Below, in pieces: positions 1,758 to 55,246 of a stretch of 55,246 nucleotides of DNA (positions are counted from its first letter, which is position 1; each line of letters opens with the position of its first letter). This DNA comes from a virus, in the IMG/VR virus record IMGVR_UViG_3300045988_088672; one strand, written 5' to 3'. A model generated the notes under the pieces. That model was not told the DNA's origin and searched no databases. It saw nothing but the letters and a program-made list of their open reading frames with translations. Made by a program: the position numbers and the translations under genes.

Positions 1758-3473
1758 ATGATTAGAATAAGCATCGGAGAGCCTGATAAACTCTCCAATA
1801 ATATTTTAGTAAAAAAATCTGCATTTGTAAACTTCGACTATAACCCGGATATTATAAATTTTATAAAAAAGATGGGAACGAGGATATATAACCCGAATAA
1901 CCATACGTGGGAGATGCCTATAAATAATATCATATCCCTATGCAATAAATTTGAAAATGAAGAAATTCAAATATCCGGAATATATGAAGATTTGCACAAG
2001 CAGAAATTTGAGATTGATATTCCAAAAGACTTTGAATTTAAAACAAAGCCATTCAATCATCAGATTGATGGTGTACGGTTTGGTCTTAATAAGAAGAAGT
2101 TCCTGTTATGTGATGATCAAGGACTTGGAAAAACAAAACAGATTATAGACTTCGTTGGGTGCCTTGAAAAAACAGATACAATCAACAAAGTTCTTATCGT
2201 ATGTGGTGTAAACTCCTTAAAATATAACTGGCAGTCAGAAATTGAAACACATTCTAACGAAAAAGGGTGGGTGTTAGGAACAAGATTTAGAAAAACAACA
2301 GGTAAAGCATATGAGGGAAGTACAAAAGATAAAATTGATGACTTAAATAACTTACCAGATTGCAGATATATAATCACTAATATTGAAACACTCCGGGCAG
2401 GTTCAGAAAAGATTAGCAAAACAAAATATCATTTTCCTATTGCAGAGAAATTACAGGAATTATGCAAAGATGGAACAATATCAGTGATTGCATTTGATGA
2501 ATGTCACAAATCAAAAGAACCTACTTCTTTACAGAGTCGTGCCATGATAAATGTAACTGCAAAATATATGGTTGCTATGAGTGGGACACCACTTATGAAC
2601 AATCCACTTGATTTATATTTCCCTATGAAATGGTTGGGATATGAAAATCATAGTTTTTATCAATTCAAACAGCATTATTGTAACTTTGGCGGATGGGGAG
2701 GCTCACAGATAGTTGGATATAAGAATCTTGATGAAATCAGAGCAATGATGGACAACATTATGCTGAGAAGATTAAAAATGGAAGTTCTTGATCTTCCAGA
2801 AAAAATCAGAAAAATTGAATATGTGGATATGACACCGAAGCAGTCACAGATTTATAAAGAAGTTTATAATGGTGTCATGAATGAAGTTCATAAAATCAAG
2901 TTTTCCAATAATCCTCTTTCCATGATGATTAGATTAAGACAGACAACCGGATGGACAGGAATTATTTCAGAAAAAATACAGGAATCCGCTAAAATGGATA
3001 GAATGATTGAACTTGTTGAAGAAATCACACAGAGCGGGCAGAAGGCAATCATTTTTAGCAACTGGGAAAGTATGACGGAAGTTGCAAAAGAAAAACTTAA
3101 AGAATATAAACCAGCTTATATCACAGGTGCAACAAAGGCAGAAGAAAGAATGGTTGAAGTTGAAAGATTTCAAAATGATCCATCTTGCAAAGTTATCATT
3201 GGAACCATTGGTGCAATGGGAACTGGACTCACACTGACAGCTGCACAGAATGTTATATTTTTAGACGAACCTTGGAACAGAGCATTAAGAGATCAGGCAG
3301 AAGATAGAGCACATAGAATTGGAACAAAAGGAACAGTTAATATCACATTTCTTTGTTGTAAAAATACGATTGATGAACGTATTCATAACCTTGTTGAAAA
3401 GAAAGGACAGATCAGTGATGCATTAGTTGATGGAAAGATTAGTGTTGATGATATTAACTATCTTCTTTCTTAA
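1758..3473 (+). CDS. SNF2/Rad54-family helicase
   Basis: Motifs DDQGLGKT (Walker A), FDECHK (DExH) and GTGLTLT...DEPWN...QAEDRAHRIG (helicase C motifs V/VI) are typical of SNF2 ATPases. Confidence 0.85.
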   Translation: MIRISIGEPDKLSNNILVKKSAFVNFDYNPDIINFIKKMGTRIYNPNNHTWEMPINNIISLCNKFENEEIQISGIYEDLHKQKFEIDIPKDFEFKTKPFNHQIDGVRFGLNKKKFLLCDDQGLGKTKQIIDFVGCLEKTDTINKVLIVCGVNSLKYNWQSEIETHSNEKGWVLGTRFRKTTGKAYEGSTKDKIDDLNNLPDCRYIITNIETLRAGSEKISKTKYHFPIAEKLQELCKDGTISVIAFDECHKSKEPTSLQSRAMINVTAKYMVAMSGTPLMNNPLDLYFPMKWLGYENHSFYQFKQHYCNFGGWGGSQIVGYKNLDEIRAMMDNIMLRRLKMEVLDLPEKIRKIEYVDMTPKQSQIYKEVYNGVMNEVHKIKFSNNPLSMMIRLRQTTGWTGIISEKIQESAKMDRMIELVEEITQSGQKAIIFSNWESMTEVAKEKLKEYKPAYITGATKAEERMVEVERFQNDPSCKVIIGTIGAMGTGLTLTAAQNVIFLDEPWNRALRDQAEDRAHRIGTKGTVNITFLCCKNTIDERIHNLVEKKGQISDALVDGKISVDDINYLLS

Positions 3474-52413: not shown

Positions 52414-52650
52414 ATGATTAAGATGAATTTTAAATTGAATGACAAGGTTTACAATTTCTTAAAATGGCTAGCAATGATTGTTATGCCGGCAATCGGATCT
52501 CTATACTTTGGACTTTCAGGAATATGGGGATTTCCATACGCAGAACAAATTGTCGGAACGATAACTCTTGTAGATACGTTCCTTGGTGCCTTGCTTGGTA
52601 TCAGCACAGCAAGTTATAACAAAAGGAGTGAATCAAATGGACGGAGATAG
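52414..52650 (+). CDS. Holin (Dp-1-family-like, two TM)
   Basis: YNFLKWLAMIVMPAIGSLYFGLSGIWGFPYAEQIVGTITLVDTFLGALLGIS matches the Dp-1-type holin pattern. The start could instead be ATG 52423. Confidence 0.6.
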   Translation: MIKMNFKLNDKVYNFLKWLAMIVMPAIGSLYFGLSGIWGFPYAEQIVGTITLVDTFLGALLGISTASYNKRSESNGRR

Positions 52651-52873
52651 ATTGGCATTAGAGTTGTTAAGAGAGCTAAAATCCACGTGCAAAAGATGGT
52701 TTATTCTGTTCATCATAACATTGATTCTTCTATTTGCTACCAACTTGGTATGGTTGTATGCTTGGAATCTTCCGGCGGAGACTTCAACAGAATCATATGA
52801 TATTGATTCAGAAGACAATGGAAATGCGGTTTATAATAATTCGGGAGAGATGAATGTTAATGGCGAGAATTAG
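52637..52873 (+). CDS. Single-TM membrane protein (holin- or lysis-accessory-like)
   Basis: ORF track 52583..52873. ATG 52637 is preferred because it follows AAAGGAG. The TM segment is WFILFIITLILLFATNLVWLYAW. Confidence 0.55.
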   Translation: MDGDRLALELLRELKSTCKRWFILFIITLILLFATNLVWLYAWNLPAETSTESYDIDSEDNGNAVYNNSGEMNVNGEN

Positions 52874-52948
52874 AATCGTGAAAACCACAACAAAAAGAGG
52901 AAGGAGAAGCCGACCGACGAACCCAAGACCAAAGAGAGGTAGAAGAAG

Positions 52949-53149
52949 ATGATTATATCGGATTTTACTTCCGATGAACTGGAATTTTTTAGAAAAAGAT
53001 GTAATTTTGTTAATTTCGAAAAGCAAATCTTCGAACGAAGAGCGAAAGGTGTTTCCTTACAACAAATTGCAGAAGATCTGGATATCTCGTACGATTATGC
53101 AAGATACCTAAGCCGGAAAGTTAATAAGAAGATAATAAAAGTTCTATAA
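52949..53149 (+). CDS. Sigma-70 region-4-like / LuxR-type HTH small regulator
   Basis: EKQIFERRAKGVSLQQIAEDLDISYDYARYLSRKV resembles sigma region 4.2 or ArpU/Xpf-type late regulators. Confidence 0.5.
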   Translation: MIISDFTSDELEFFRKRCNFVNFEKQIFERRAKGVSLQQIAEDLDISYDYARYLSRKVNKKIIKVL

Positions 53150-53154
53150 CACAA

Positions 53155-53197
53155 AAATAACACAATCTTTACATTGAGATTGTGTTATTTTTATTTT
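53155..53197 (+). terminator. Strong rho-independent terminator
   Basis: A 13-bp perfect stem pairs AAATAACACAATC with GATTGTGTTATTT and is followed by a T-rich run. Confidence 0.85.
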
Positions 53198-53202
53198 ATA
53201 AT
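53174..53202 (+). promoter_or_regulatory. Putative promoter overlapping the terminator (TTGAGA-17-TATAAT)
   Basis: TTGAGA 53174-53179, 17-bp spacer, TATAAT 53197-53202. Confidence 0.45.
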
Positions 53203-53242
53203 TTATTTATAAAATATTTAGTAGATAAAGGAGGGAAAATAT

Positions 53243-53533
53243 ATGAGATTGAAGAACATATTAAATGATTCAGAAATCCAAGATATTCCTATCCTATATG
53301 TGTTGAGAGTGATAACCGCCGTTCAGAAGGAGATTATAAATGAAGAATCCAGTGCTATTTGTACGAGGTTATCTGAAAGTTATCACGAATTAAGGAGTGA
53401 TTTATATGTTTCAGAACCCGTACGCAAGTTTGATGCCACAAAATCAATTTTATCCACAAAATATGAACATGAACAATCAACAAATAATGCCGCAAGAACA
53501 GCCACAGAATCTTATAAGGGTAAATGGTATTGA
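53243..53533 (+). CDS. Hypothetical protein (3' part overlaps the next ORF in another frame)
   Basis: ORF track, 96 aa. Strong SD AAAGGAGGG. The last ~43 codons overlap the ORF starting at 53406. Confidence 0.45.
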   Translation: MRLKNILNDSEIQDIPILYVLRVITAVQKEIINEESSAICTRLSESYHELRSDLYVSEPVRKFDATKSILSTKYEHEQSTNNAARTATESYKGKWY

Positions 53534-53741
53534 TGGGGCAAAAGCATATCAAATGAATGCTAATTCTACTGTTGCTTTGTTTAAATTCGATGAAGTGACT
53601 GAAACTACAAAGAGCGAAGAAAAGCAAGATTATATAAGCAGGAAAGAATTTGAAGAATTTAAGAAGGAGCTGATGAACAATGGCAAGCAGTCTATTCAAC
53701 GGTCAAAATCAAACCTCACAGATAAATCCTCAAGTAATTAG
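53406..53741 (+). CDS. Hypothetical Q/N-rich protein
   Basis: ORF track 53397..53741. ATG 53406 is preferred because it follows AAGGAGTG. The N-terminus is MFQNPYASLMPQNQFYPQNMNMNNQQIMPQEQPQN. Confidence 0.55.
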   Translation: MFQNPYASLMPQNQFYPQNMNMNNQQIMPQEQPQNLIRVNGIDGAKAYQMNANSTVALFKFDEVTETTKSEEKQDYISRKEFEEFKKELMNNGKQSIQRSKSNLTDKSSSN

Positions 53742-53892
53742 TCAAGCAAAATCCATGATGAAGAATATGAATCAAATAAAAGGAATTATGGGAATGTTAA
53801 GTGGTAAAGGAATGAATCCTGAACAAGCAGTTCGTTCCATATGTAAGGAAAGAGGCATAGATGTAGACGCTTTTATGTCTCAACTTAAATAG
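53680..53892 (+). CDS. Hypothetical small protein
   Basis: ORF track, 70 aa. It overlaps the preceding ORF by 62 nt. Confidence 0.45.
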   Translation: MASSLFNGQNQTSQINPQVISQAKSMMKNMNQIKGIMGMLSGKGMNPEQAVRSICKERGIDVDAFMSQLK

Positions 53893-53939
53893 GAATTTGC
53901 AAATTCAAATAAATTAAAAAATGAAAGGAGAATACTATA

Positions 53940-54551
53940 ATGACAGATGGAGTATCTTTAGCAGACATTGCCGCAGTCACCGATAATAAAGATGGTATGT
54001 TCGGTGGTGCAGGTGGTGGCGGAATGTGGATTTTCGCACTTTTAATCCTCTTGCTTATTGGCGGAGGTGGTTTCTTTGGGGGAGCCAGAAATGTAAATGG
54101 AGAACCAGTTACAGAGGCAGGTCTTTGTAATGCCATGAATTTCAATAACCTTGAGAATGCAGTTGGTAGACTGAATGACAATCTTCAGCACGACTATCAT
54201 GGATTACAGAATGGTATCTGTAACCTTGGATATGAAACACTAAGAAACTTCAACACAGTTCAGCAACAGGTTGCAGATTGTTGCTGTACAACACAGAGAG
54301 CTATCGATGATGTAAACTATAACGGTGCTATCAACACAGCGGCTATCAACGCAAACACAACAGCACAGACACAGAAGATTCTTGATGCTATGGCACAGAA
54401 TAAGATTGAGAGCTTGCAGGCACAGGTCAACCAGCTTCAGCTTCAGTCAGCTATGTGTGGTGTAATTAGATATCCTAATGCAACCACATACACAGCAGGT
54501 ATGAGCCCTTGCTGGAGTAACCCATGTTGCAATAACGGAGTTAATATTTAG
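53940..54551 (+). CDS. Gly-rich single-TM, Cys-rich coiled-coil protein
   Basis: GGAGGGGMWIFALLILLLIGGGGFFGG forms the TM segment. Cys clusters are CCCTT and CWSNPCC. A Q/N-rich heptad tract is present. Confidence 0.6.
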   Translation: MTDGVSLADIAAVTDNKDGMFGGAGGGGMWIFALLILLLIGGGGFFGGARNVNGEPVTEAGLCNAMNFNNLENAVGRLNDNLQHDYHGLQNGICNLGYETLRNFNTVQQQVADCCCTTQRAIDDVNYNGAINTAAINANTTAQTQKILDAMAQNKIESLQAQVNQLQLQSAMCGVIRYPNATTYTAGMSPCWSNPCCNNGVNI

Positions 54552-54558
54552 TCATTTA

Positions 54559-54607
54559 GACAAGGTTTGAAATATTAGAGGAATGCCTTGTCGGTGTTCC
54601 TCTTTTT
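54559..54607 (+). terminator. Terminator with an overlapping alternative (anti-terminator-like) hairpin
   Basis: The terminator is AGAGGAA(54577-83)/TTCCTCT(54597-603) plus TTTT. The alternative helix is GACAAGG(54559-65)/CCTTGTC(54586-92). The two share bases and exclude each other. Confidence 0.55.
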
Positions 54608-54627
54608 AATTGAAAGGAGATAATAAT

Positions 54628-55047
54628 ATGAGTTGTAAATCAGGAATATATGTTGTAAATACTACAACAGGAACATCTATTGGTATCGGCGGTACTTATG
54701 TACCTTCTACAATAATTAGACGTTATGGGAAGTATTGTCAGTTAGGCGGAAATGGTATATCAATCGGAAATTGTGCCGGAGGCGCTGGTTACTATGATGT
54801 AGATGCTTCTGTATCTGTTGCCGCTACTGCCGTAGGAAATATGACAGCCACATTATACAAAGATGGAGCACCAGTTCAAGGAGCAACAGCCAGTGCAACA
54901 GCAACAGCAATAGGTGATATTGTAGCACTTCCTATATCCGCACTTGTAAGATTAAACTGTGATTGTGATACAGCTAATCTTACAATAGTTATTGGAGGTC
55001 AGGCAGTAACTGCTCAAAATCTTGCATTTGTAGTTGAGAAAATCTAA
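54628..55047 (+). CDS. BclA C-terminal-domain-like (C1q/TNF-like jelly-roll) protein
   Basis: GYYDVDASVSVAATAVGNMTATLYKDGAPVQGAT...LTIVIGGQAVTAQNLAFVVEKI parallels the BclA C-terminal domain (GFYKITVIANTATASVLGGLTIQVNGVPVPGTG...SASIIIEKVA). No collagen repeats. ATG 54628 follows AAAGGAG. Confidence 0.5.
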   Translation: MSCKSGIYVVNTTTGTSIGIGGTYVPSTIIRRYGKYCQLGGNGISIGNCAGGAGYYDVDASVSVAATAVGNMTATLYKDGAPVQGATASATATAIGDIVALPISALVRLNCDCDTANLTIVIGGQAVTAQNLAFVVEKI

Positions 55048-55246
55048 TGGATGATAGACAATTTGATATATTAGACATATTAAATATATTGTCTTTTATC
55101 ATAGGGGTTAAAAATATAAATGAGAACTTATCTCAAAATACTGCCGGAGATTTATTATCTGCGGCAGTTAAAGAGATACATGAACATTTATCCGAACAGG
55201 ACAGAAAGATTGATTTAATTCTAAAAAAGTTAGGAGTTGATTATAA
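55047..55246 (+). CDS. Hypothetical protein, 5' part (continues across the genome junction to position 133)
   Basis: ATG overlaps the preceding stop (TAATG). Translation starts MDDRQFDILDILNILSFIIGVKNINENLSQNTAGDLLSAAVKEIHEHLSEQDRKIDLILKKLGVDY... The window ends mid-codon. Confidence 0.5.
   Translation, partial: MDDRQFDILDILNILSFIIGVKNINENLSQNTAGDLLSAAVKEIHEHLSEQDRKIDLILKKLGVDY
55148..55246. repeat. Terminal direct repeat, copy 2 (identical to 1..99)
   Basis: Read directly from the sequence. Confidence 0.95.

Follow-up and report, generated by a model that had tools for sequence, protein, structure and literature searches.

Known superinfection exclusion systems usually consist of one small protein; those considered here are lactococcal Sie2009, S. 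thermophilus Ltp, T4 Imm and Sp, and HK97 gp15. Together with morons and conversion cassettes, these offer one of the closest comparisons for the phage locus described below, which resembles them as an independent unit, bounded by a promoter and a terminator, between the lysis genes and an integrase or early genes. Like morons and exclusion proteins, it has a small membrane-anchored core and a part that varies among close relatives. It differs from the exclusion proteins in comprising at least five conserved genes rather than one, in having no sequence relationship to them, and in occurring also in apparently virulent phages.

A second set of comparisons comes from the spore surface. The C-terminal domain of BclA (PF18573; PDB 1wck, 3twi), from the Bacillus anthracis exosporium, is a jelly roll, while ExsFA/BxpB (7r1m, 8d02, 9h3d) are single-domain heads. 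The latter form stand-alone TNF-like trimers in the exosporium basal layer and bind N-terminal peptides of collagen-like proteins, and the subunits of endospore appendages (Ena) carry cysteine-bearing N-terminal connectors (10.1101/2025.02.11.637640).

The sequence analyzed here, referred to as the window, is a viral DNA of 55,246 nucleotides (IMG/VR record IMGVR_UViG_3300045988_088672). A sequence-only reading had taken the genes that follow its lysis genes for an island of loose accessory genes. We find instead a conserved colinear operon, with an order that is constant in 88 loci: the region, at 52949–55246 plus 1–777, is one copy of a widespread, so far unstudied cassette in phages of gut Gram-positive bacteria.

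Results and Discussion

Organization of the locus and its transcription signals

Bases 1–99 of the window are identical to 55148–55246, as in an assembly that is circular or permuted. The 77-amino acid ORF F (55047–55246, continuing to base 133; + strand), previously described as junction-spanning, does exist, but there is no real junction: with the 99-bp end repeat of a circular or permuted assembly, F is an ordinary continuous gene. All ORFs of the earlier reading (A to H) are present as described, and conserved homologues are all found on the + strand. As that reading had also proposed, the genes lie outside the recognizable virion and lysis sets, after the tape-measure, Dit, Tal, lysin and holin genes and before the replication genes.

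The last gene before the cassette is S (52949–53149, + strand), which encodes a 66-amino acid stand-alone helix-turn-helix (HTH) protein of the GerE/LuxR or sigma-70 region 4 type, as assigned by profile searches. It is followed by an intrinsic terminator (53153–53192, + strand; 17-bp stem, then a T run) that ends the late/lysis operon and is the most stable hairpin-plus-T element (−18.3 kcal/mol) in a whole-genome screen of the + strand. Second in the same screen (−15.3 kcal/mol) is a T-tailed hairpin that separates D from E (54577–54603, + strand), a putative partial terminator or transcript-stabilizing element. A sigma-A-type promoter (TTGAGA-17-TATAAT; 53174–53202, + strand), matching at 11 of 12 positions, overlaps the 3′ arm of the first terminator; it is distinct from the promoter cassette that recurs in seven copies elsewhere in the genome, and is the probable start of the cassette transcript. 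The two strongest terminators of the genome flank A-B-C-D, and E to H then run to a weaker terminator-like hairpin (756–777, + strand), which closes the unit and precedes the first copy of the repeated promoter cassette (TTGACA-17-TACAAT with TG; 804–832, + strand). The strong terminator with its embedded promoter and the early promoter at 804, both recognized in the earlier reading, are thus confirmed. By consensus scans, the unit has its own promoter and terminator between conserved modules, as expected of a moron. Positions 52500–55246 gave no match to an Rfam family.

These signals recur among relatives. Under a strict perfect-stem test, 26 of 41 non-redundant loci have a hairpin with a T run directly after S, and 13 of these 26 show a −10-like box in the 32 nt that follow the S terminator (versus 13% of random windows). 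Within the 110 nt that follow the D stop codon, 45 of 77 non-redundant loci have a hairpin with a T-rich tail, versus 7.3% of random windows.

Conservation of gene order

The cassette order was first seen in loci L001 to L005 and in the cultured Clostridium perfringens phages CPD1 and XP41-N3; another C. perfringens phage with the cassette is 17DYC. Across the 88 loci that contain D, which constitute our synteny set, the order is fixed: S, terminator, B-C-D, hairpin, slot protein, and then optional F, G and others. S is upstream of B in 63 of these loci, B is present in 81, and C in 61. In public data clustered at 90% identity, D accounts for at least 6,000 clusters and B for at least 7,500.

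One might regard the genes as unrelated morons that happen to be adjacent and have no joint function. The set of genes downstream of the slot (F, G, H and others) does differ among loci, and for G and H this explanation is possible. For the B-C-D-slot core it is contradicted by an order that is maintained in loci of 27% to 68% GC and at protein identities below 40%, and by the conservation of the internal hairpins, making a chance assemblage barely credible as an account of the locus.

The position after D is an exchangeable slot, occupied by an E-type protein in 53 of the 88 loci and by an alternative family in 30, with no locus containing both. The alternative protein is a cysteine-rich beta protein (N-terminal MACKxxCxLC) unrelated to E: no homology was detected between the two families, the alternative family has only weak, unrelated matches in Pfam, and the libraries searched assigned it no function. 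The two types interchange between loci in which D is 65–72% identical. Divergence at the slot is also evident in a comparison of the window with its close relative L008, where D is 94% identical and E only 27%; DNA homology between the two breaks off at position 54499, leaving out ∼17 codons at the 3′ end of D, and picks up again at base 84, at the start of G. Family-wide, the type of D C-terminal tail does not follow the choice between E-type and alternative slot proteins, so the location of this breakpoint within D may be coincidental.

The small genes

Gene A (53243–53533, + strand) has a strong ribosome binding site (RBS) and is a lineage-specific small gene, conserved only over its first ∼45 codons. 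Its homologues, found only in close relatives (50 amino acids in L008, 43 in L090) and absent from other loci, are genes of 43–50 amino acids that end before B, while the window copy extends over B. B (53406–53741, + strand) combines a low-complexity N-terminus rich in Q, N, P, Y and M – the prion-like N-terminus of the sequence-only reading – with a small conserved domain (IxVxGxxGAKAY...D...FYxKxxDxxG) and a C-terminal helix. It belongs to phrog_21718, annotated as of unknown function; not one of its clusters (at least 7501) is named, and no relative was found in the PDB. Compared with homologues P0468 and P0482, the window copy has a 22-amino acid in-frame deletion in the conserved core, so that the cassette of this particular phage may be impaired. 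C (53680–53892, + strand) encodes 70 amino acids rich in Met, Gln and Asn, has its own RBS, and starts inside the 3′ end of B; L001 and L003 share both a B/C overlap of 47–62 nt and the N-terminus MA(S/N)SLF. No significant Pfam or PHROG match was obtained for C. The three small ORFs had been described as mutually overlapping, which is accurate for A/B (128 nt) and B/C (62 nt); A and C share no bases, and the arrangement is therefore an overlap chain.

Downstream of the slot, F has a hydrophobic N-terminal stretch (SFxIGxxNxxENxxQ) and a helical C-terminus. This optional member was detected in 20 of the 88 loci, with homologues 3′ of E or of the alternative protein in L001 (45% identity) and L007, and is missing from the close relatives L008 and L090. 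G (99–398, + strand; 99 amino acids, helical), a frequent downstream neighbor found in 20 of the 88 loci, has no significant family match. H (409–750, + strand; 113 amino acids) is the last gene before the downstream terminator and is restricted to this lineage: HMM labeling detects it only in the window and L008, and L090 has a 106-amino acid gene at the same position.

The slot protein E

E (54628–55047, + strand; 139 amino acids) is predicted to be a stand-alone jelly roll of the BclA-C/C1q/TNF type. Its AF2 model (pLDDT 94.1, pTM 0.87) has the appearance of a ten-stranded C1q/TNF-type jelly roll, and the best Foldseek matches in the PDB are to BclA (3twi and 1wck; TM 0.73–0.76, E ∼5e-9), followed by F-BclA, BxpB, ExsFA and C1q. 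All of the top 50 matches have a probability of 1.00, most with a TM of 0.65–0.77, and they consist mainly of BclA, F-BclA, BxpB, ExsFA, C1q, C1QL and TNF-family heads. PRD1 P5, the Sf6 needle knob, the phi812 spike knob and cyanophage fiber domains are also matched, while the matches in BFVD are stand-alone gut-phage proteins of 130–153 amino acids. The family comprises 1122 representative clusters, and nearly all of the top 150 representatives are 130–145 amino acids long.

By itself, E has no Pfam BclA_C match at E ≤ 1 and no sequence match in the PDB. The E family profile, by contrast, matches BclA chains in the PDB (E = 1.6e-4), and 16 of 30 E homologues match PF18573 (best E, 2.7e-7). 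The earlier statement that the sequence of E tracks BclA therefore applies to the profile and the fold, not to the single sequence; that E is a free jelly roll like the BclA C-terminal domain, with no collagen stalk, is well supported by structure prediction and Foldseek. The jelly roll of BclA aligns across all 139 residues of E, at a structure-aligned identity of 18–19%. Unlike BclA, E has no collagen-like (GXX)n stalk, its first beta strand beginning at residue 5 of 139, and no exosporium-targeting N-terminal motif, for which the sequence leaves no room; moreover, E is encoded in a phage operon beside a membrane-protein gene, also in phages of non-sporulating hosts. ExsFA/BxpB, like E, are free heads with a single domain and are comparable to it in size and fold (TM 0.72–0.77), although the structure-aligned identity is only 13–16%. 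By their precedent, E might be a peptide-docking module, for instance on the conserved D tail SLADIAAVT, which is pure speculation.

Both slot families share with Ena subunits a small beta-sandwich, cysteine motifs at the N-terminus (MSCK... in E) and the lack of a signal peptide. No Ena-domain (DUF3992) match was found in Pfam for the E family, which matches BclA_C only, or for the alternative family. Cys3 is not conserved: E relatives often begin MAKS... or MSKS..., making a conserved N-terminal disulfide dock unlikely.

Hosts and lifestyles

Many carrier loci are labeled Clostridia. Loci at 62–68% GC, which include prophages, come from records labeled Collinsella, Slackia and Atopobium, one of them (63.5% GC) on a 289-kb contig labeled Collinsella. 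Further loci are labeled Faecalibacterium and Mogibacterium, neither of which is known to sporulate. The cassette adjoins an opposite-strand integrase in at least 13 loci, indicative of temperate phages, while one cassette genome encodes its own polymerase, primase and helicase and has no integrase among its annotated ORFs. The C. perfringens carriers come from sewage and wastewater, and their cassette lies among genes annotated as antirepressor, Gam-like and Erf-like.

This distribution weakens the proposal of the sequence-only reading that the products modify the spore or exosporium surface or allow hitch-hiking on spores. S, E and the cysteine-rich proteins would in that case be deposited on the host spore. 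The structures nearest to E are indeed exosporium proteins (BclA, BxpB, ExsFA), the best natural PDB match of S is GerE, a regulator of spore-coat genes, and the abundance of Clostridia among carriers would fit. Nevertheless, given that carriers include the high-GC loci labeled Collinsella, Slackia and Atopobium as well as Faecalibacterium and Mogibacterium, that E has neither stalk nor targeting region, that GerE-type HTH domains and C1q folds are both generic, and that no sporulation promoter or gene lies nearby, we regard a spore-specific role as highly unlikely.

The same reading had also suggested a second receptor-binding complex. In such a virion accessory, E would be a detachable C1q-like head for a glycan on the host surface, and D a shaft, or else a part of the tail or ejection apparatus that acts on membranes. 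C1q/TNF-like heads are common on phage fiber tips, and the fold matches of E include PRD1 P5 and the Sf6 knob; cassette-like exchange of the head together with the neighboring end of D is reminiscent of tail-fiber mosaicism, and a hairpin after a highly expressed gene is typical also of major structural genes. However, the genes lie outside the structural module, beyond the lysis genes and a strong terminator, and have a separate promoter; Dit, Tal and fiber-like genes are already present in the window; the link to an HTH regulator and the adjacency to integrase genes in temperate phages are unusual for virion genes; and D resembles tail proteins only through a weak match to phrog_4287 (E = 0.0068). 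A structural role is accordingly quite unlikely.

The predicted membrane protein D

D (53940–54551, + strand; 203 amino acids) is a predicted bitopic membrane protein, based on its sequence and the alignment of homologues. An acidic N-terminal tail (SLADIAAVT) is followed by a Gly-flanked hydrophobic helix, a helical Q/N-rich region containing CCC(T/E)T(Q/N)RxID, and a C-terminal tail rich in Cys, Gly and Tyr. The poly-Gly-flanked transmembrane helix and clustered cysteines noted earlier are thus both recovered: the CCC motif is invariant in a 10-sequence alignment, a cysteine cluster lies at the C-terminus, and the portion following the helix contains 5.1% Cys, compared with 1.2% in 17 large proteins of the same phage. 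The description of D as disulfide-capable is doubtful in strict anaerobes. D (6169 homologues) is a member of phrog_16490, of unknown function (E = 1.4e-17), and has no relative in the PDB or Pfam; a single-sequence AF2 model (pLDDT 39.8) was uninformative.

All 82 non-redundant homologues examined have one hydrophobic helix each, and evidence on its orientation points both ways. The N-terminal tail has a net charge of −2.2 and is more negative than the C-terminal flank in 74 of the 82 loci. Firmicutes tend to keep cysteine out of exported proteins, and the acidic tail and the ∼5% Cys content argue for a cytoplasmic C-terminal part. Conversely, the D variant of L039, which has a classical K/R-rich N-in signal anchor, argues for a C-terminal part outside the cell.

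With the N-terminal tail outside and the C-terminal part inside, D could serve as a membrane-anchored organizer or host-takeover complex on the cytoplasmic face, forming with B, C and E a scaffold to which phage replication or assembly is tethered or by which a host factor is sequestered. Analogues would be phi29 p16.7, which consists of a transmembrane segment, a coiled coil and a C-terminal domain, and SPO1 gp56-type division inhibitors. The charge and cysteine content of D are consistent with this arrangement, as is the apparent lack of a signal peptide in the sequences of B, C, E and F. Furthermore, low-complexity sequence rich in Y, N, Q and G in B and in the D tail resembles that of self-associating proteins, and the cassette heads the replication-side genes in the window and lies near the antirepressor, Gam-like and Erf-like genes of the C. 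perfringens phages. Against it, a housekeeping-type target gives no reason to expect that non-homologous folds should repeatedly take the place of the slot protein; the cassette of temperate phages is located beside the integrase and set apart by terminators, as a conversion gene would be; the opposite topology is suggested by the L039 variant; and there is no sequence or profile similarity to p16.7- or gp56-type proteins. We consider an organizer unlikely.

The putative regulator S

A profile of 32 S homologues matches GerE (1fse, 74 amino acids) with E = 9.9e-10, followed by NarL, RhlR and sigma region 4 domains. S aligns with GerE over ∼50 residues and shares its size range and single-domain architecture, but its family is specific to phages and fits models of sigma-70 region 4 no less often than those of LuxR/GerE: in Pfam, 15 of the 32 homologues match Sigma70_r4 (best E, 3.9e-9), 14 match r4_2 and 8 match GerE, while the window protein alone falls below the Pfam cut-offs.

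The proximity of a sigma-region-4-type regulator and of the lysis cassette would suit non-classical, holin-like release, in which D or phage lysis frees E or the alternative protein to act on neighboring cells as a lectin, decoy or bacteriocin-like factor, with S a dedicated regulator in the manner of TcdR and UviA at clostridial toxin and bacteriocin loci. The layout of D (N-terminal tail, one transmembrane helix, C-terminal domain of ∼155 amino acids) can be likened to that of the T4 holin T; the slot proteins have no signal peptide, yet adopt folds typical of extracellular binding proteins; and this ‘cargo’ differs strongly among related phages. Such release is nonetheless very unlikely, as it gives B and C no role, the proteins have no similarity to holins, toxins or bacteriocins, S (only ∼70 amino acids) is a DNA-binding domain rather than a sigma factor, and in the C. 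perfringens phages S is 2.5 kb away from B.

A tentative model: exclusion at the envelope

Our preferred reading, to which we assign a probability of about 0.3, is that the cassette encodes an accessory complex, anchored in the membrane, whose specificity subunit can be exchanged, for superinfection exclusion or some other conflict at the envelope. S closes the lysis operon and is followed by the strong terminator and the overlapping promoter. D, encoded upstream of the internal hairpin, would consequently be made in excess and inserted in the cytoplasmic membrane by its single Gly-flanked helix; B and C, low-complexity, Q/N/M-rich and presumably cytoplasmic, might help to make or organize D. 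The slot protein would be a minor subunit that confers specificity. The complex would then act at the envelope of the infected or lysogenic cell, against other phages or variation in the host surface, with superinfection exclusion or blocking of the receptor or of entry as its most likely role; it would not be a spore-specific device.

We infer exclusion, with low confidence, from the architecture, the genome position and the pattern of swapping. It appears to fit best with a function of use to both lifestyles and a core formed by a membrane protein. That exclusion systems usually consist of a single small protein counts against a system of at least five genes, and E, which has no signal peptide, would be unable to reach the Cys-rich part of D before lysis should that part face the exterior. 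Known systems provided no counterpart: in PADLOC-DB 2.0, neither S, nor any of B to H, nor the alternative slot protein had a match at E ≤ 0.1, no NCBIfam family matched the cassette, and Pfam and PHROGs gave no function for B, C or D.

Whatever its precise role, B-C-D and the slot protein may, at what we judge to be somewhat less than even odds, represent a previously unrecognized multi-protein system of phages of monoderm gut bacteria: a machine anchored in the membrane, in which proteins of unrelated folds replace one another as the specificity subunit, equipped with a dedicated small HTH regulator and a conserved expression layout with two terminators, and with a mode of action that none of the known exclusion, defense, lysis and virion modules would cover.

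Genome setting

The window carries a 99-bp exact direct terminal repeat (1-99 = 55148-55246) and is a circular or permuted assembly of a complete phage genome, with a true length of 55,147 bp and a GC content of 34.6%. Because the assembly is circular or permuted, the ORF that reaches the window end is a single uninterrupted reading frame; the ‘junction’ is a mere cut point, and the region considered here therefore extends from the end of the lysis genes to the replication genes. The + strand carries all large ORFs. By PHROG matches, genes for a helicase, a replication initiator, DnaB, a primase and a DNA polymerase occupy 1.7-15 kb; the large terminase maps to 34.3 kb and the portal to 36.4 kb, and tape measure, Dit and Tal fall within 44-49 kb. 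Behind these come a lysin-like gene (51597) and a holin (52414). The annotated ORFs of this genome include no integrase, and a 71-nt piece was its only DNA-level match in the phage collection.

The genes of interest are designated S, A, B, C, D, E, F, G and H, in their order on the + strand (52949-55246 plus 1-777). A 32-codon ORF (52854-52952) encoding an extremely Arg/Lys-rich peptide (MLMARIRIVKTTTKRGRRSRPTNPRPKRGRRR) is located between S and the final membrane-protein gene of the lysis region. On the far side, the SNF2 helicase gene at 1758-3473 is intact; its counterpart in a 57-kb relative (L090:5609-8420) is split by a DUF559/zf-FCS gene, probably an inserted endonuclease.

A conserved, separately bounded operon

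Contigs encoding relatives of E (a BclA-like head protein) share recurring neighbors: S (a helix-turn-helix (HTH) protein of ∼70 amino acids), B, C and D (a Cys-rich membrane protein of 203 amino acids), followed by E. The S homologs on these contigs are 40-45% identical to the product of 52949-53149, and the D homologs 40-63% identical; in one lineage (L001/L002), F is present as well. In one temperate phage, a holin and an amidase gene precede S, B, C, D and E, which are followed by one more gene and by an integrase on the opposite strand. A tblastn search of the phage collection with D recovered five cultured Clostridium perfringens phages, of which XP41-N3 and CPD1 carry, in order, B (146 aa), C (77 aa), D (207-211 aa), a Cys-rich protein of 125 aa where E would otherwise lie, F (66 aa) and two additional genes.

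A scan with a D alignment, restricted to one genome per species, yielded 130 confirmed matches, from which 80 loci were retained; ORFs were labeled by iterative HMM searches in 88 loci, including a few near-duplicates. As these loci were chosen by the presence of D, the following co-occurrence figures are conditional on D: B was found in 81 of the 88, S in 63 and C in 61, while the position after D (the ‘slot’) was filled by an E-type protein in 53 and by an alternative protein of the 125-aa type in 30, with no locus harboring both. F and G each occur in 20 loci, and other downstream families in 15-24 each. The order S, B, (C), D, slot, optional genes was invariable, showing that what a sequence-only reading had described as an accessory ‘island’ is instead a conserved, separately bounded operon. 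Against this constancy, the proposal that these genes are unrelated morons that happen to be adjacent is scarcely credible. One 125-kb contig labeled Faecalibacterium contains two copies (L075, L076) ∼38 kb apart, presumably in two prophages.

The small upstream proteins

S is a stand-alone HTH protein of the GerE/LuxR or sigma-70 region 4 class; a profile of its family matched GerE (1fse) at E = 9.9e-10, and 15 of 32 family members are matched by Sigma70_r4. Conservation of A is confined to approximately the first 45 codons. Its relatives in L008 and L090 (43-50 aa) stop before B, while the window copy runs to 96 aa and overlaps B by 128 nt; A and C share no overlap, contrary to an initial description of three mutually overlapping ORFs.

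B combines a Y/N/Q/P/M-rich low-complexity N-terminus with a short conserved domain and a C-terminal helix, and belongs to a family of at least 7501 clusters, none of them named. The window copy lacks 22 residues (DSNEDIMYIKTTDGAGFPSIRM) at 53580-53585, in-frame between residues 59 and 60, which are retained in two relatives (P0468 and P0482) that are otherwise ∼91% identical. Since the family is most conserved in exactly this stretch, this copy of B may be defective; alternatively, it could be an assembly variant. C is rich in Met, Gln and Asn, and its start codon falls within the 3' end of B, an overlap that also occurs in L001 and L003, as does the C N-terminus MA(S/N)SLF. A B-C frameshift fusion was considered and rejected, as C lies in the +1 frame with its own AGGAG ribosome binding site and a conserved N-terminus.

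Searches of Pfam, PHROGs, NCBIfam and PADLOC with the window proteins and more typical homologs returned only PHROGs of ‘unknown function’ (phrog_16490, 21718 and 17879, the class to which PHROGs assigns B and D) and sub-threshold noise (e.g. DivIVA, HAUS4); no member matched PADLOC or a named NCBIfam family. Profile searches with B, D and the alternative slot family found no PDB match. The phrog_17879 protein (175-190 aa), often encoded downstream of the operon (L001:3050-3619, L007:6502-7029), shows ferritin/Dps-like motifs by eye (HEQLANYYDFLGLxGY...HEYH), confirmed by no library.

D, a cysteine-rich membrane protein

D has 6169 homologs and consists of an acidic N-terminal tail containing SLADIAAVT, a single helix between glycine runs, a helical Q/N-rich region in which CCC(T/E)T(Q/N)RxID is invariant across a 10-sequence alignment, and a Cys/Gly/Tyr-rich tail. 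Modeled as a single sequence it gave a pLDDT of 39.8, and the model is unusable. The orientation of D is important because E, B, C and F lack signal peptides. Three features favor a cytoplasmic C-terminal part: the N-terminal tail is more acidic than the C-terminal flank in 74 of 82 homologs, the two sides of the helix have equal K+R counts, and the C-terminal part contains 5.1% Cys, versus 1.2% in the large proteins of this phage (exported proteins of Firmicutes tend to be poor in Cys). A variant in L039, whose N-terminus is swapped for a classical K/R-rich signal anchor, favors an external C-terminal part. The operon might encode a cytoplasmic, membrane-tethered organizer or host-takeover complex, an unlikely reading that the acidity and Cys content would suit and the L039 anchor would not. 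A slot protein lacking a signal peptide might also be released by lysis or through the holin to serve as an external effector, which we regard as distinctly improbable.

E, a BclA-like head without a stalk

Searched alone, the window E (139 aa, one residue shorter than initially stated) found no match in Pfam or among PDB sequences; homologs at 50-60% identity carry PF18573, and an E-family profile reaches BclA chains at E = 1.6e-4. An AlphaFold model based on a 30-sequence alignment is confident and all-beta (pLDDT 94.1, pTM 0.87), and in a Foldseek search of the PDB its top match is the BclA C-terminal domain (TM 0.73-0.76), followed first by the F-BclA tip domain, next by BxpB and ExsFA, which are stand-alone proteins of the exosporium, and finally by heads of the C1q and TNF families. 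Model and search bear out the BclA-C-like fold that had been proposed earlier, and identify E as a BclA-C/C1q-type head that adds a new member to an established fold family. When predicted viral structures were searched, uncultured human-gut phages supplied the best matches (TM up to 0.88), all stand-alone proteins of 130-153 aa and in a few cases labeled ‘BclA protein’. An exhaustive profile search collected 1122 representative clusters, of which the best 150 are almost all 130-145 aa; absence of a stalk, as had been noted for E itself, is thus the rule for the family. Such a head might belong to a virion accessory or receptor-binding complex, a role suggested in the earlier reading that we consider rather unlikely.

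Exchange of the slot

Window and L008 encode D proteins that are 94% identical, but their E proteins are only 27% identical, and L008 lacks F. Their DNA is similar over 52947-54499 and again from base 84 onward, so the replaced segment takes in the final ∼17 codons of D together with the hairpin behind it, E and F. Other pairs of loci with D 65-72% identical carry different slot types, showing that the slot is exchangeable by recombination. The alternative slot family, represented by XP41-N3 (L007:5544-5921) and 29 other loci, comprises Cys-rich, beta-rich proteins of 110-170 aa with the N-terminus MACKxxCxLCDxL and the core KYCIVVAQxIP...IRTRTRY; it has no significant Pfam match, and hhalign detected no profile similarity between it and the E family.

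The swap breakpoint lies within D, yet across the family the slot type cannot be predicted from the class of D tail, and Cys3 of E is often absent in relatives; physical contact between the D tail and E is therefore only suggested. Two candidate rules were discarded. Tail class failed to track slot type, and an ‘M-[AS]-C-K’ N-terminus common to the slot proteins is not a general disulfide dock onto D, since many E relatives begin MAKS or MSKS.

Terminators and promoters

A hairpin with a 17-bp stem and T run (53153-53192) is the most stable terminator-like site in a whole-genome screen (-18.3 kcal/mol) and overlaps a TTGAGA-17-TATAAT promoter, bearing out the initial description of both elements. 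The second most stable site (-15.3) lies between D and E (54577-54603), and a weak hairpin (756-777) precedes a promoter at 804. The latter is one of seven near-identical + strand cassettes of ∼75 nt (804, 3537, 10146, 14820, 20222, 25693 and 30978; aaaaaaccta TTGACA tttctatttttatgtgt TACAAT ataatcaaagttaagaaa...), which are distributed across the early and middle half of the genome and look like a phage-specific promoter class; the operon promoter at 53174 differs from this set. We infer a transcription unit composed of terminator/promoter, A, B, C, D, hairpin, E, F, G, H and terminator.

By a strict test, 26 of 41 non-redundant loci have a hairpin and T run behind S; in half of these a -10-like box lies within 32 nt past the hairpin (13% of random windows). 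Behind D, 45 of 77 loci have a hairpin with a T-rich tail (7.3% of random windows), whichever slot protein comes next. The terminator palindrome extends over the -35 region of the promoter behind it and might also serve as an operator for S. Stems of the post-S terminators are alike in two distant loci (53153-53192, AACACAATC...GATTGTGTT; L003:6727-6761, ACACACTAATC...GATTGGTGTGT).

Distribution and hosts

The host range of the operon is broad. Carrier loci span 27% to 68% GC and include a 289-kb contig labeled Collinsella (63.5% GC), others labeled Collinsella, Slackia, Atopobium, Faecalibacterium or Mogibacterium, and many Clostridia, although MAG host labels are unreliable. In at least 13 loci the operon lies upstream of a tyrosine integrase gene on the opposite strand, at a distance of no more than 6 kb, and it is also present in the polymerase-encoding window genome and in C. 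perfringens phages from sewage and wastewater. Many carrier contigs of 4-65 kb in MAGs labeled Melainabacteria, Bacteroides, Rikenella or Treponema (L008, L014, L019, L034, L037, L039, L043, L085 and others) are probably mis-binned phage contigs; some of those labeled Bacteroides, Melainabacteria or Treponema measure 35-40 kb. D found no match in the plasmid collection, and Pfam was uninformative for the flanks of a high-GC locus (L027). An autonomous mini-element was rejected, as the short ‘Bacteriophage sp.’ records containing D and E are unverified linear scaffolds rather than complete genomes.

Modification of the spore surface had been proposed on the strength of the BclA-like head together with the Cys-bearing membrane protein, but this distribution of carriers argues against such a role, which we now consider very improbable; where gut-phage proteins of the E fold are labeled ‘BclA protein’, the name should likewise not be taken as a link to spores.

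Possible function and significance

D would form an abundant membrane-anchored core (abundant because it is encoded upstream of the internal hairpin), assisted by B and C, with the slot protein as a minor subunit conferring specificity. Such a design, in which a membrane protein is paired with a rapidly swapped binding module and insulated by terminators, would be useful to temperate and virulent phages alike, and is best fitted by a role in cell-envelope conflict, most simply superinfection exclusion or entry blocking, to which we assign a probability of about 0.3. We file the operon as a phage accessory or exclusion-type operon. The libraries and literature searched, the latter covering DUF7841/7842, BclA_C, C. 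perfringens phages and gut prophages, yielded no described counterpart of it; that it constitutes a genuinely new system seems possible, at somewhat short of even odds.

In animal-gut phages of Clostridia and Coriobacteriia, the operon ranks with the commoner conserved gene sets, and its core proteins are unknown in every library tested. Its presence in cultured C. perfringens phages makes its function directly testable. If the slot protein is the specificity determinant, the operon would offer a new approach to host range and to competition between phages in the gut, as well as a natural example of a C1q/TNF head outside fibers and exosporia.
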